Part shown: piece by piece, positions 12,001-18,000 of the stretch | Numbering within the stretch: position 1 is the first letter of the stretch | Layout of the letters: the number at the start of each line of letters is the position of its first letter | From: Vulcanimicrobiales bacterium | Lineage (GTDB): Bacteria; Vulcanimicrobiota; Vulcanimicrobiia; Vulcanimicrobiales; Vulcanimicrobiaceae | Direction of reading: 5' to 3' | NCBI GenBank assembly: GCA_038215615.1 | Contig: JBBQQR010000002.1 | Span: 64,001 to 128,000 of the forward strand | DNA: 64,000 nt | Made by a program: the position numbers

Positions 12001-15000
12001 TTCGCCGGCATCTACGGGCAATTTCCGCAGTGGAACGCGCGCGCGCACCGCACGATCGCGCTGCAAGACCGGCTCGCGGAGTGCTTTCTTTACAGCATGA
12101 ACGGCAAGCCGCCGTCATACAACAGCCGCGAAATGATCGCGCTGGTTGCGTACATCGCCTACTTGTCGCGCGGAACGCCCGTCGGCGCAACGCCCGATCC
12201 GTCGGTAAGGTTAACGAAGTTCGCGCCGCCGCAGCCGGCGAGCGCGCAGCGCGGAGCGTCGCTGTACGCGCAGAAGTGCTCGGCCTGTCATGGGGCAAGC
12301 GGCGCCGGCTCGGCGGCTCCGCCTCTCTGGGGCCCGACGTCGTTCAACGGCGGGGCGGGCATGCACCGGCTTTGGACCATGGCTGCGTTCGTGCGGTATA
12401 ACATGCCTGGGGACGCGCCCGGCTCGCTCACGCCTCAGGAGGCGTACGACGTCTCGGCCTTCGTCCTGGGCCACGCGCGGCCCAAGTTCCAGGGGGCCCG
12501 CCCGGTCGGGTTTCCGGTCCGTCCGGCCAAGTATTTCTGAAAGGTGCGACCGCGCAGGTTGCATCCGATAGCCAAAACGGGGCAATCTTGGGAAGGGCCC
12601 TTATAGTGGTAGACGGAGACAACATTCTTGCCTGACACCCTGGTGCGGATCGTTTTGCCCGAGATGGGCGAGTCGGTGACCGAAGGTTCGGTCGTCGCCT
12701 GGCGTAAGCAGCCCGGCGACTTTATCGCTGAAGGCGATCCCCTCGTTGAGATCACGACCGACAAAGTCGACGTCGAAGTTCCGTCGACGGTTTCGGGCGT
12801 CGTGAAGCAGCTGCTTGTCGCCGAAGGCGATACGGTAGCCGTCGGCGCGGCGCTTGCCGAAATCGATACGACCGCCAAGGCGCCCGGCGCGGCGAAAGCT
12901 CCGGCGCCGGTTGCCGCAAAAAGTGCGCCGCCCAAACCGCCGGCATCCGCCCCGTCGTCTCCGCAGGCAAAGCCCAACGGCGCCGTCGTTGCAACTCCGC
13001 AAGCCAAACGTTTCGCGCGGCAACTCGATGTCGATCTCGCGCGCGTGCATGGAAGTGGACCCGGCGGATTGATTCTGCGCGAAGACGTCGACCGTCAAGC
13101 CGAAATTTTGCCGCCGGCAAGCCGCGGCGCTCAGCTGCCGCCGTTGCCGCCGCTGCCCGCGAACGCGCAAGTCACGCCGATAAAAGGTCCGGCGGCCGCG
13201 CTGGCTTCCTACATGGAGCAGAGCCTATCGATTCCGACCGCGACAAGCTTCCGCACGATCGCCGTCGATACGCTCGACGCGCGCCGGCGCGACCTCAACG
13301 CGGGCATAAAAGCCGCCGGCCGCTCGGAGAAAATTTCATTTACGCATGTGATTGCGTACGCGCTCGTGCGCGCGGCGCACGAGATGCCGTTCATAACCGC
13401 GCACTTCCGCCGCGACGGAAACCAGCCCGTACGCGTGGAGCCCGGCGTCCATTTAGGTTTGGCCGTCGACGCGGAAAGAAAAGACGGATCGCGTTTTCTG
13501 GTCGTGCCGGTCATCAAAGATGCGTCGTCTCTTGATTTCGCCGCTTTCCGTAACGCCTACGAAGATCTTGTGGCGAAAGCGCGGGCTAACAAGCTCGCGG
13601 CCGACGATCTGCAAGGCGCATCTTTCACGCTAACCAATCCGGGCGGGATCGGAACCGCTGCTTCGGTGCCGCGCCTGATGCCCGGCCAAGGCGCGATCAT
13701 CGCAGCGGGCGCGATTGGCTATCCGCCAGGTTTTGCCAAAGCGAACGAAGCGTCGCTCAAGTCGCTCGGAATGACCAAGATCATGCAGATGACGTCGACG
13801 TACGATCACCGGGTGATCCAAGGCGCACAGTCGGGGGATTACCTCAAACGTATCGACGAGCTGCTCCAAGGCAAAGACGGATTTTATGAAACGCTCTTTG
13901 CGTCGCTCGGCTTGCAGATGAGCGACTTTCTTGAGGGCCGCAGTCCTGAGCGAGCGTTCAGCGAGTCGAAGGGGGCATCGGACGAGATGTTGCGCGCGGT
14001 GGCGGCCGGCATGGCGCTGGTCGCGGCATACCGCACGCACGGACATCTTGCAGCGCATTTGGATCCGCTCGGATCTCCCCCGCCGGGCGATCCGTCGCTC
14101 GAACCGGCGAACTGGGGACTCACGCCGGCGCTGCAATCGGCCGTTCCCGCGTCGGTGCTGCGCGTCAAAGTTCCGGGAAATACGCTGGCCGACGTGCTGC
14201 CGCAGCTGCGCGAGACGTACAGCTCCACGATTGCTTACGAAGTCGAGCACATCTCGAACACCGAGCAGCGCGAATGGCTGCGCGATGCGATCGAGTCGGG
14301 GCGCTACAAGATCACATTCTCCGACGATCGCAAAATCGATCTGCTGCGCCGTCTGACACGCGTCGAGAGTTTCGAGCGCTATCTGCGCAAAACGTTCTTG
14401 GGGCAAAAGACTTTTTCGCTCGAAGGTCTCGACGCGATGGTTCCGATGCTCGAAGAGTTGTTGGCGCTGATCGCCGCCGACGGGACGCAGGCCGCGGTCA
14501 TTGGCATGGCTCACCGCGGTAGGCTCAATACCATCGCGCATATTTTAAACCGGCCATACGAAGAGATCCTGACCGAATTCGAAGCTGCGCACGAACGTGG
14601 CGAGCTCGGTTCGGCCGACGTGACGGGCGACGTGAAGTATCACCAGGGCGCCGAAGGCGTTTTTGAAACGCCCGACGGTAAGAAAGTTCGCGTCACGCTT
14701 TCCAACAATCCAAGCCATCTCGAAGCGGTCGATCCTATCGTGGAAGGAACCGCGCGCGCGCTTCAAACCGATCACTCGTTACCGGTCGCGCAATTGGATG
14801 CGAAGAAGGCAGTGCCGATTCTGATACATGGCGATGCCGCGTTCCCGGGTCAAGGCGTCGTTGCCGAGGTTCTAAATCTGCAGTCGCTCACCGGATATTC
14901 GACCGGCGGCACGGTGCACATTATCTCCAACAACCAGATCGGATTTACAACCGATCCGCGCGATGCGCGATCCACGCGCTATGCCTCGGATTTGGCTAAG

Positions 15001-18000
15001 GGTTTCGACGTGCCGATCGTGCACGTCAATGCCGACGACCTCAGCGCCTGCATGTGGGCAGTCCATTTGGCCGCCGAATTCCGGCGCCGCTTCGGGCGCG
15101 ACGTGCTGATCGACGTCATCGGGTATCGCCGCTTCGGCCATAACGAACAGGACGAGCCGGCGTACACGCAGCCGGCGATGACCGAGAAAATCAAAGCGCA
15201 TCCGACCGCGCGCGATCTTTTTGCCAACAACCTTGTGGCGCAAGGCGTCCTTGCGGCCGAGCGCGTTGCCGAGCTCGCGGCCGATGCGGCCGCTCATCTG
15301 CAAGAAACGCACCGCACGGTCAAGAGCGGAAAACATAACGTCGCCGGAATGCTCGCGAAGATCAGCGGAACGGCGCCGATTGAGGCGGTTCCGCTCGTCG
15401 CGGCGGGCAAGGATCGTTTGCTTGCGTGGACCCAGGAACTCACGCGCGTGCCGGACGGTTTTTCCGCGAACAAGAAGTTGCAGGCGCAGTTCGAGCGGCG
15501 TCAATCGACAATCGCACAAAAAGGTCTGGTTGATTGGGGAATGGCCGAGGCGCTCGCGTTTGCCTCGCTGCTAACGCAAGGTACGCCGGTGCGCTTAACG
15601 GGTCAGGATACCGAGCGCGGTACCTTCAGCCACCGCCATGCGGTTTTGCACGATCCCGCTGCGCGCGCCGAATACGTGCCGCTGCAGCACGTTCCCGGAT
15701 CGAAAGCGTCGTTTGAAATTTACGACAGCCCGCTATCAGAATACGCGTGTCTCGGCTTTGAATATGGCTACAGCGCCACGGTTCCCAAAGCGCTGGTGCT
15801 ATGGGAAGCGCAGTTCGGAGACTTCAATAACGGCGCGCAGATCGTGATCGATCAATTTATTGCCGCCGGACAAGCGAAGTGGGGCCAGACCGCGCGGCTC
15901 ACGCTGCTGCTGCCGCACGGTTACGAAGGCATGGGTCCCGAACATTCCAGCGCGCGGCTCGAGCGGTTCTTGCAATTGACCGCCGAGGGAAATCTGCGCG
16001 TCGCGAATCCGTCTAACGCCGCAAATTACTATCATTTGCTGCGCCAACAAGCGACGATGCCGCAGCCGGTCCCTCTCATCGTGATGACGCCGAAGTCGCT
16101 GCTGCGCCACGCGGCTGCGGCCGGCGGCCTCGACGAGATGGCCAACGGCGAGTTTCGGCCGGTGCTCGACGACCCGCGCGTTGAGGACAAATCCACGATC
16201 GAGCGTCTGCTCTTGTGCAGCGGAAAAATCTACTACGATCTGAGGCTTCATGAGAAATATAAAGATCTCAAGAAAACGGCGATCGTGCGCATCGAGTTGC
16301 TCTCACCGCTGCCTTACACGGATATCAACTCGATCATCGCGACCTATCCGAATCTCAGGAAGCTGGTCTGGGTTCAGGAAGAGCCGAAGAACATGGGCGC
16401 ACGCGCCTATGTGCGCCGCCGCTTGATCGAACGTCGTAACGACAACCTCGAGATCGACTACATCGGCCGTCCTTACCGTGCCAGCCCTTCCGAAGGCTAT
16501 CCCGGCGCGCACGCGGCCGCGCAAGAGCGCATCATTACGGAAGCGCTGACCGAGTGACGGCTTCGCCGTCGAGCAAGGGCTAAGGTTATAGCCAGGAATG
16601 CCTGAGCGGTACGAGCGCGGCGAAAAGTTGCTGCGCAAGATCGATGGCGACAAAGTTGCGGATAACTTAATCGCGGATTATGAGAAGTTAGCGCCGGATT
16701 TTGCACGGTACCTCGTCGAATTCGCGTTTGGAGAAATTTATGCGCGCGAAGGTGACGTAAGACAAAGGGAACTCGTGGCGATCGCTTCGCTCGCGACCAT
16801 GGGCGGCTGCGATAAGCAGCTCGGAACGCATGTGCGCGGGGCTTTCAATGTCGGTCTTACCGAGGCCGAAGTCGTCGAAGCCGTGATGACCCTCATACCG
16901 TACATCGGCTTTCCGAAGGCGCTCAACGCGCTGGCGGTTGTTAAAAAAATCGTCGATAAGCGCGCGACGTAGAGATCTTCGATAGATCTTAACAACGGCT
17001 TGATAGAGTCGGGCGATGAAGATATGGATTGGGCTCGTCCTTCTCTGCGCTCTTGCCTTCGCTCGGCAGCGGGTTTCAGCCGCGCGCAACGCCGATGTGG
17101 CACAGTTCGTAACGGCGTTCAATACCGGAACGGCTGCCGCGATCGACGCTTACGTGCACGCGCACGTTCTGCCCGCGCCTCCCGGCGCGCACGCGCCCGA
17201 CGCGGCGCAATCGCTACGGCAGCTGCGGCAAGCAATCGGGACTATCATCCCGATAACCGCAAATGAACTTCCGCGCCGGATCGTGGCCACGGTTCGCGCA
17301 CAGAGCGGCGGGTGGTACCGCGTAAACTTCGTTCGCGCTCCGCAAGCCACTCCGCACCGCTTCGCGCGAATCGTGACCGACCTGGGTCTCCCGCCGAAGT
17401 CTTCAGGGCAGAGCACAGAACAGTATCTGTCGGCTCTTTCGTCGGCGGGATATTTCTCCGGCGTCGTGCTGAGCGCTACAACGAACGCTCCGCCGCTTGT
17501 CACGGCCGTTGGATTCGCGAACCGGGCTGGGGGCGCACAAAACACCGCGGATACCCTCTTCAACATCGGTTCGATCGGAAAGTTATTCACGACGGCTGCG
17601 GTCTATCAACTCATCGAGCAAGGTGTTTTGCACAAAACCGACACCATTGGAAAGTGGCTTCCGGATTATCCGAATGTGGAAGCCCGCGCAGCGACGATCG
17701 ATCAGCTGCTGTCCATGCGCTCGGGAATCGGCGATTTCTTTAATGCGCGATTCTTTCACGGATCGCCAGAACGCATTCGCACGCTCCAAGATTACGTGCC
17801 GTTCTTTGCCGCCGAACCGCTCGCGTTCAAGCCTGGAACGAGCCAGATGTATTCCAACGGCGGATTCCTCGTCTTAGGACTCATCATCGAAAAAGCGAGC
17901 GGTCAAGACTTTTATTCTTACGTCAAGGTGCACATATTCGACCCGGCCGGGATGACGAGCACGTCGTATCCGGCGATCGATCAGGTGCTTCCAAATCGGG

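Follow-up and report, generated by a model that had tools for sequence, protein, structure and literature searches.

Among the closest described counterparts of the locus analysed here are the actinobacterial 2-oxoglutarate dehydrogenases OdhA and KGD (8P5T, 8P5R and 2XT6; PMC10415282), in which an N-terminal hairpin precedes an E2 core joined to the E1 domains, and which depend on the pyruvate dehydrogenase E2 (E2p). According to that study, Ser129 and Tyr314 of OdhA are the pair that selects the succinyl group, a helix insertion (residues 296–302) and Phe340 accompany the hexamer, and the sites are ~60 Å apart. The SucA, SucB/OdhB and Lpd of Bacillus and Chloroflexota supply the same four functional modules as the present fusion, from separate genes and with an E2 cube. 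A full fusion with two lipoyl domains, LB-PS-E2-E1, has been named in three Thermoleophilia genomes by domain search (bioRxiv 10.1101/2020.07.24.212647), and there Bruch et al. speculated that it is independent of E2p lipoyl groups. The novelty implied in the earlier note was therefore set too high, since both the architecture and this speculation were already in print; what is new is that the architecture is the standard form in a class unrelated to Actinobacteria. Compared with the fusions of Bruch et al., the present one has a single lipoyl domain, is nearly fixed in its non-actinobacterial class, and has an E1 of identified lineage. Our literature search on Thermoleophilia or lipoyl-bearing E2-E1 fusions returned only that work, whose 'isolated cases' may include non-actinobacterial members; searches on Eremiobacterota or Dormibacter oxoglutarate dehydrogenase found no literature, and those on the Vulcanimicrobium TCA cycle and KGD/OdhA phylogeny found no relevant work.

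The window is the whole stretch of 64,000 nucleotides that was analysed (positions 64001–128000 of contig C2 of the source genome), and all coordinates below are window positions on the + strand. The start and end quoted in the earlier note are likewise window positions, and the offset given there does not fit them. The fusion gene (12628..16557) is a single open frame encoding 1309 aa (141.5 kDa), with a TTG start that gives the same first residue in close homologues and a Shine-Dalgarno-like GGAGA (12615..12619) 8 nt upstream. Its host is a soil bacterium. Six Pfam domains, all above their gathering cut-offs, follow one another as Biotin_lipoyl (8–79), E3_binding (120–154), 2-oxoacid_dh (180–414), E1_dh (601–902), Transket_pyr (968–1160) and OxoGdeHyase_C (1168–1307), which agrees with the domain order in one chain given in the earlier note; the set that defines the full fusion of Bruch et al. 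(PF00364 + PF02817 + PF00198 + PF00676 + PF02779 + PF16870) is thus present in one chain. The protein also scores 1449 against NCBIfam PRK12270 (kgd; cut-off 878). An assembly chimera was ruled out, because the lipoyl, E2 and E1 parts share one frame in all 22 full-length loci taken as whole genes (L096–L117) from the class Vulcanimicrobiia/Eremiobacteria, as named in the match labels. The GC3 values of the arm (0.71), E2 (0.71) and E1 (0.72) are alike, and therefore give no sign of a recent join. A promoter and terminator scan gave nothing over chance and no site 5′ of the gene, and a sequencing-run search listed no RNA sequencing run containing it; a single DNA run contains 0.93 of the words and may be the source.

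The chain begins with a single lipoyl domain at about aa 5–80 (12640..12867; PF00364, 1.3e-19), predicted to adopt a β-strand fold with pLDDT 85–97, and its lipoyl lysine is K46 (12763–12765). This lysine is present in 89 of 89 full fusions, in one of them as TEK. The domain is 45–55% identical to those of DlaT-like E2s, 36–44% to SucB and 31% to that of the cell's own AceF; these identities alone were used, since the alignment of this domain is too short for a tree to show its origin. Linker 1 (aa 82–119, 38 aa; 12871..12984) is 84% Ala/Pro/Lys/Ser with pLDDT below 50 at 88–116, and would be a disordered swinging arm judging from composition and model. The peripheral-subunit (E3)-binding domain (PSBD, aa 120–157; 12985..13098; PF02817, 2.3e-12), modelled as two helices, and a Pro-rich linker 2 seen from composition and model (aa 158–181, 24 aa; 13099..13170) come next; the 38- and 24-aa linkers are long enough to span the ~60 Å between the OdhA sites. 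When the PSBD was modelled with an Lpd dimer, the docking score was 0.70 (best of three controls 0.00), the runs shared at least 73% of contacts and the partner pLDDT was at least 75; the mark used is attained by 116 of 157 solved pairs and by 2 of 215 mismatched pairs. E3 and PSBD are a textbook pair, so this docking pass may reflect likeness to solved complexes.

By alignment to OdhA (8p5t), tree and conservation, aa 180–427 (13165..13908) form an OdhA-type succinyltransferase domain. Its residues are S207, T336, S346, Y392, H394 (codon 13807–13809) and Q398, with roles assigned via PMC10415282, and the alignment equates H394/Q398 with OdhA His316/Gln320, S207/Y392 with Ser129/Tyr314, and T336 with Thr258. 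The fusion shares with OdhA/KGD the E2-core-then-E1 junction, the His/Gln dyad and the Ser/Tyr pair. It also shares the helix insertion, at about aa 365–381 (helix 374–379 in the model); this insertion is specific to the fusions, and in 35 of 35 class rows it has the 34-residue span of KGD. F419, the invariant counterpart of Phe340, is likewise shared. Across all 89 full fusions the active-site residues of E2 and E1 do not vary, apart from Q398, which differs in 3. An AF2 model of aa 1–561, built on a 122-row alignment, has a mean pLDDT of 89 and OdhA 8p5x as its best Foldseek match, and OdhA/KGD is the best PDB match as well. All fused E2 cores, with the Thermoleophilia copies inside, form one clade with support of 100 (SH-aLRT; supports in our E1 and E2 trees come from quick searches, with some rows of unusual composition and an uncertain root). 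The core falls among DlaT-like E2s, which the lipoyl domain also resembles most by identity, and neither part seems to derive from SucB.

The E1 half groups differently. The ThDP-dependent E1o (aa 452–1309; 13981..16554), delimited by Pfam, conservation and trees, contains the motif GDAAF...NN from aa 735 and the conserved residues H629, Y671, H672, S696, H838 and H1106, the same as in OdhA and SucA. The SucA/OdhA hairpin PF16078 is absent from the fusion, and a profile search that was positive in E. coli, B. subtilis and C. glutamicum recovered it in 0 of 61 class genomes; OdhA/KGD carry that hairpin where the fusion carries its own lipoyl domain and PSBD. The Thermoleophilia fusions resemble the present one in lacking PF16078, in domain order and in proposed E2p independence (Bruch et al.). 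In the E1 trees the fusion is sister to Bacillus/Chloroflexota SucA (47–51% identity; SH-aLRT 99–100 under two models, from the same quick searches), while actinomycete-type KGD (41–43%) forms a separate clade, and the view that the E1 half is an orthologue of actinomycete KGD was rejected. The name 'OdhA/Kgd-type' used in the earlier note accordingly fits the E2 half only. An AU test on a clade chosen after the tree was seen rejected monophyly of the fused E1 domains (p=2e-5); monophyly was not rejected for all full fusions together (p=0.24) or for all Thermoleophilia-class E1o (p=0.11). The protein thus appears to be a mosaic in which the E2 core is of OdhA type, the lipoyl arm resembles that of DlaT and the E1o is of the Bacillus/Chloroflexota SucA lineage, in common with Dormibacteria and Solirubrobacterales, although an ancient fusion that lost its E2 core several times could give the same E1 tree.

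The source genome, rated 100% complete, encodes no further SucA/E1o or SucB. Its other E2s belong to a canonical aceE-aceF pair and a branched-chain-like cluster; sucC is present, and lpd, a lipB-like ORF (identified by our own reading of the sequence) and lipA adjoin one another on contig C1. Lpd is a separate single-copy gene common to all complexes, so the earlier term 'three-in-one' should not be read as including E3 itself. The fusion is probably the sole NAD-linked 2-oxoglutarate dehydrogenase of the cell, a single chain that unites E1, E2 core, lipoyl arm and E3 dock. Most likely it would work as a hexamer with Lpd as the sole required partner, and the sequence, the gene content of the genome and the docking model all favour a putative self-contained E2o-E1o that would take no lipoyl groups from E2p. 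K46 would be lipoylated by LipB/LipA, and the conserved features suggest an OdhA-like assembly of a trimer of E1 dimers and two E2 trimers (~850 kDa); a 24-mer cube would be prevented because the C-terminal E2 helix with F419 probably folds back. By homology, E1o would decarboxylate 2-oxoglutarate on ThDP and succinylate the tethered arm, which would swing ~60 Å to the E2 site for H394/Q398 to hand the succinyl group to CoA, and in the model the PSBD would recruit the single Lpd to reoxidise the arm and yield NADH. The inter-domain contacts of OdhA are not kept (Arg781 is replaced by Q872, and the Arg298–Glu301 salt bridge by S376/S379), so the interface may differ in the fusion.

With its own arm and a PSBD-recruited Lpd, the fusion would not need AceF and would probably escape control by OdhI/GarA. 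Residues contacting OdhI/GarA in OdhA are not conserved, and no OdhI family member exceeded the cut-off in 61 class genomes, but generic FHA proteins do occur, and the host has an FHA protein of 101 aa. GarA-like control via D886 (OdhA Asp795) was considered and rejected as a conserved feature, with Asp in 3 of 35 class rows.

An unlikely alternative, though the best of the three considered, is that the enzyme has a working arm but also trades lipoyl groups with AceF or the branched-chain E2, as part of a mixed supercomplex like that of Corynebacterium. One Lpd does serve all complexes, and OdhA-type active sites take lipoyl domains in trans (PMC10415282); however, the fusion lacks the hairpin to which binding of partner components is ascribed. 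The Thermoleophilia hosts likewise have an E2p without the Phe-containing insertion, as Bruch et al. report (10.1101/2020.07.24.212647). Here too the cell's AceF, which exceeds the TIGR01348 cut-off, has a canonical E2p C-terminus lacking that insertion by eye, and in its lipoyl domain it matches the arm at only 31% identity.

Less probable still is a vestigial or regulatory arm on a protein that acts mainly as a KGD-like decarboxylase/carboligase giving succinic semialdehyde or HOA, the products released by known side activities of mycobacterial KGD. The genome does encode the alpha subunit of a 2-oxoacid:ferredoxin oxidoreductase, so the fusion need not be the main flux route. Against a vestigial arm, none of the 89 full fusions lacks the lipoyl lysine, duplication of the lipoyl domain is frequent and the E2 catalytic residues do not vary, a pattern that indicates selection for the oxidative route. 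Least probable of all is that 2-oxoadipate from lysine/tryptophan catabolism, and not 2-oxoglutarate, is the main substrate: lysine-catabolic genes do lie 5–8 kb away, but these are genes of the 2,3-aminomutase route, which bypasses 2-oxoadipate, and the fusion has E1 residues as in OdhA/SucA and is the sole E1o in a genome with sucC. KGD makes intermediates from both substrates (PMC10415282), but S207/Y392 match the succinyl-selecting pair.

The fusion is widespread. Its N-terminal 430 aa were matched at E<=1e-40 in 189 of 192 class relatives (source genome excluded; 8 unpublished, and G213 matched only at 1e-41), which bears out and widens the 31 of 31 class genomes counted before, and in 31 of 61 Dormibacteria-class genomes; the fusion is therefore not restricted to Actinobacteria. 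Together with the Thermoleophilia copies, which are 49–56% identical over aa 1–430, the Dormibacteria-class matches also justify the earlier warning that the architecture might extend to other groups. Further phyla may carry the full fusion, the scan of genome contigs giving the best 80 of 605 stretches, and the ESM Atlas holds clusters with the same architecture, with taxa given for few members only. Database labels of the class fusions read 'multifunctional kgd' or 'E1 component'.

The DHR[VI]IxG motif, reported earlier as conserved, occurs in 96 of 107 full-length protein matches, and the phmmer search likewise found two lipoyl motifs in 96 of 107. The claim that most relatives carry two lipoyl domains (102 of 109) does not hold at the genome level, where one is commoner: 14 of 20 class genes taken whole have one, and among the 150 frames listed 92 are 1280–1399 aa, 38 at least 1400 aa and 20 shorter. 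The excess in protein searches probably arises because phmmer sums the scores of both domains, and the 102 of 109 looks like a ranking artefact. Since the 44 Thermoleophilia copies divide into 24 with two domains and 20 with one, we take lipoyl number as variable and not defining.

A bolder reading is tentative and, taken as one joint claim, falls a little short of an even chance. OdhA-type E2 cores may have combined with E1o domains from more than one lineage, and the Bacillus/Chloroflexota-type E1o family may have three architectures, namely E1 on its own (part of Thermoleophilia), hairpin-E2-E1 that lacks the helix insertion (in some genomes of the phylum containing Dormibacteria), and lipoyl-PSBD-E2-E1. 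The last may have been transferred as a single gene among three soil lineages, displacing sucAB in the ancestor of Vulcanimicrobiia. If true, this would mean a ~1-MDa dehydrogenase with six to twelve arms tethered in cis and no OdhI/GarA control, and would overturn the printed view of such fusions as actinobacterial. How one E2p lipoyl set serves OdhA, E1p and E2p is an open question according to Yang et al. (PMC10415282), for which the fusion would be a natural control, since it combines that E2-E1 scaffold with an arm and an E3 dock of its own and would need one partner. The known range of E2-E1 fusions is corrected as well, since a widespread class of soil bacteria outside Actinobacteria has them as its usual form.

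The fusion gene occupies window 12628-16557 on the forward strand, a single 1309-aa frame that starts at TTG; GGAGA sits 8 nt 5' of this codon. From the Pfam assignments, it is clear that the chain joins a lipoyl domain (aa 8-79), an E3-binding domain (PSBD, aa 120-154), an E2 core (aa 180-414) and three E1o domains ending at aa 1307, which bears out the earlier note's reading of one frame holding all four parts. The protein scores above the cut-off of NCBIfam kgd PRK12270, and among solved structures it matches OdhA and KGD best, the match beginning at about residue 156. An AlphaFold model of aa 1-561, based on an alignment of 122 rows, has a mean pLDDT of 89 and contains a lipoyl domain of beta-strands, a disordered linker (88-116), a two-helix PSBD and an E2 fold; its top Foldseek match is OdhA (8p5x). 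The fusion is a real and intact enzyme that is probably functional.

Functional residues of the fusion were mapped through the alignment with OdhA. S207, T336, S346, Y392, H394 and F419, together with H629, Y671, H672, S696, H838 and H1106, are invariant in all 89 full fusions (LB-PS-E2-E1), and Q398 is kept in 86 of the 89. The conserved set corresponds to the succinyl-selecting pair, the catalytic dyad, the cube-blocking Phe340 and the E1 histidines of OdhA. The OdhA helix insertion, which Yang et al. link to E2-E1 fusion (PMC10415282), is of full length in 35/35 class (Vulcanimicrobiia/Eremiobacteria) fusion rows, whereas the positions of OdhA Arg781, of the Arg298-Glu301 bridge and of the residues that contact OdhI are freely variable. 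No OdhI family member was found above the cut-off in 61 class genomes. A lone 101-aa FHA protein of the host genome (G000:C4:133944-134249, reverse strand, L015) is without the OdhI-type tail and scores far under the OdhI cut-off. In the PSBD loop (window 13060-13090, forward strand), the fusion family has Leu where most other fetched E2s have the Arg of G-R-[IV]; one relative (L105, genome G125) has the lipoyl motif TEKV in place of TDKV, with the lysine retained.

Close hits carry the labels Baltobacteraceae, Rubrimentiphilum, Tumulicola and Eremiobacteraeota, from which the host is inferred to belong to Vulcanimicrobiia/Eremiobacteria. The host genome, rated 100% complete, yielded no second E1o. 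Its two other E2s are an AceF adjoining AceE on contig C17 and the E2 of a branched-chain-like cluster on C30, where two tandem E1-alpha genes are followed by E1-beta and E2 with no adjacent E3 (L001:4583-9303). A single Lpd exceeds the family cut-off and adjoins a lipB-like ORF and lipA, and the genome also carries sucC as well as the alpha subunit of a 2-oxoacid:ferredoxin oxidoreductase. When PSBD aa 114-162 was modelled with the Lpd dimer, the score was 0.70 (best control 0.00), contacts agreed by at least 73% between runs, partner pLDDT was at least 75, and PSBD helix 1 was placed across the Lpd two-fold. This docking mark is reached by 116/157 solved pairs and 2/215 mismatched pairs; since PSBD-Lpd is a textbook pair, the pass may stem from resemblance to solved complexes rather than from binding by this PSBD itself.

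Several neighbouring genes may be mentioned. Directly 5' of the fusion, window 11084-12540 (forward strand) encodes a protein with a weak TetH (thiosulfate dehydrogenase) likeness, at 113 bits with a cut-off of 300, and a cytochrome c of the SoxA/TsdA type; the cytochrome is found near the fusion in 11/104 loci checked. Immediately 3', a CMD/AhpD-like (carboxymuconolactone-decarboxylase-family) gene at 16598-16972 (forward strand) is kept in 13/104 loci, and a link with the lipoyl arm is worth considering because mycobacterial AhpD-type proteins use dihydrolipoyl groups. Further away, at 21940-24386 (reverse strand), a KamA-family radical SAM gene adjoins an L-erythro-3,5-diaminohexanoate dehydrogenase gene (NCBIfam, above cut-off), so that lysine-fermentation-type genes stand alongside aerobic-type dehydrogenase complexes in this genome.

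Taken together, the domains, residues, partner genes and lack of another E1o, along with the modelled N-terminal-half fold and Lpd docking, make a self-contained fusion the likely reading. K46 would be lipoylated within an OdhA-like hexamer of ~850 kDa, the tethered arm with its 38 + 24 linker residues would bridge the roughly 60 A from E1 site to E2 site, and Lpd would generate NADH, with the enzyme working independently of AceF and of FHA control. That the fusion belongs to a mixed supercomplex seems improbable to us, and that its arm is vestigial, very improbable. We give least credence of all to 2-oxoadipate as the main substrate.

The earlier note also held that most relatives carry two lipoyl domains. 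A protein search gave a similar count, with two motifs in 96 of 107 hits, but scores of this kind probably give duplicated domains an advantage. The 150 genome matches listed (5 unpublished genomes among them) comprise 92 frames of 1280-1399 aa, 38 of 1400 or longer and 20 shorter. Within the class the claim was not supported: 14/20 fetched genes have one lipoyl domain, as do 23 intact loci vs 12 with two (35 rows, in which one gene counts twice, as L018 and L102). Intact Dormibacteria loci divide into 8 with one and 2 with two, and those of Thermoleophilia into 20 and 24; these copy counts exclude 16 frameshifted or cut loci of the species-genome scan.

The two halves differ in their closest relatives. 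In the E2-core tree every fused core falls in one long-branched clade (100) among DlaT-like E2s, away from SucB, and the fusion lipoyl domain is 45-55% identical to those of DlaT-like E2s, 36-44% to SucB and 31% to its own AceF. The E1 half joins Bacillus/Chloroflexota-level SucA (99-100 under LG+G4 and LG+C20), with 47-51% identity vs 41-43% to actinomycete-type KGD, so the earlier label "OdhA/Kgd-type" suits the E2 half only. Within the fusion group, class E1 groups with Dormibacteria rows (98-100). A single clade of fused E1 domains, a hypothesis set after the tree was seen, was rejected (p-AU 2e-5).

With aa 1-430 as query, 189/192 class genomes besides the host match at E<=1e-40 (G213 only at 1e-41), or 181/184 without the unpublished G236, G201, G226, G234, G219, G166, G221 and G116. 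The N-terminal hairpin of SucA/OdhA (PF16078) was found in 0/61 class genomes, a set that includes the unpublished G116 and G221. Other classes of the phylum give weak matches; of two such genomes examined, one (G066) carries sucA and sucB as separate genes and the other (G082) a fusion without a lipoyl domain. In the species-genome scan at least 80 loci match, and the matches listed comprise 52 Thermoleophilia, the remainder being labelled Vulcanimicrobiota or Eremiobacteraeota, Dormiibacterota or a few loosely labelled bins; a bin labelled 'Chloroflexia' belongs within the Dormibacteria-class sample. That sample gives 31/61 matching genomes (29/59 without unpublished G495 and G523), and the phylum containing Dormibacteria 12/101, namely 4 full and 8 beginning past the arm. 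The four arm-less matches fetched (L177-L180) are all hairpin-E2-E1; the 14-residue helix insertion, which is seen as an OdhA hallmark, is missing from them (span 20 vs 34). For Thermoleophilia, 41/121 genomes match (42 hits minus G342, whose L173 is a standalone, DlaT-like E2) and E1o is present in 62/121. Eight of the 21 fusion-less E1o-bearing genomes were fetched (L165-L172): all eight carry a standalone E1o whose start resembles the hairpin, no E2 was found within the fetched stretches, and such Thermoleophilia E1o are 55-60% identical to the host fusion's E1 half. L118, P0202, P0203 and P0258 are OdhA-type fusions without lipoyl domains, and their E1 halves group outside the actinomycete clade; an Atlas cluster includes Gemmatimonadota members.

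This kind of fusion has already been described in silico. In their preprint (bioRxiv 10.1101/2020.07.24.212647), Bruch et al. report three Thermoleophilia genomes in which the OdhA hairpin gives way to an E3-binding domain and a pair of lipoyl domains, name the arrangement LB-PS-E2-E1, speculate that it is independent of a lipoyl domain in trans, and place OdhA homologues in Actinobacteria only, save for isolated cases. The word Thermoleophilia is absent from the accessible part of Yang et al. (PMC10415282), and our literature search brought up no paper on oxoglutarate dehydrogenase in either Eremiobacterota or Dormibacter. OdhA-type proteins seem to extend far beyond Actinobacteria. New here are the occurrence of this kind of fusion outside Actinobacteria, its form with a single lipoyl domain, an E1 lineage that makes it a mosaic, and a model of the E3 dock.
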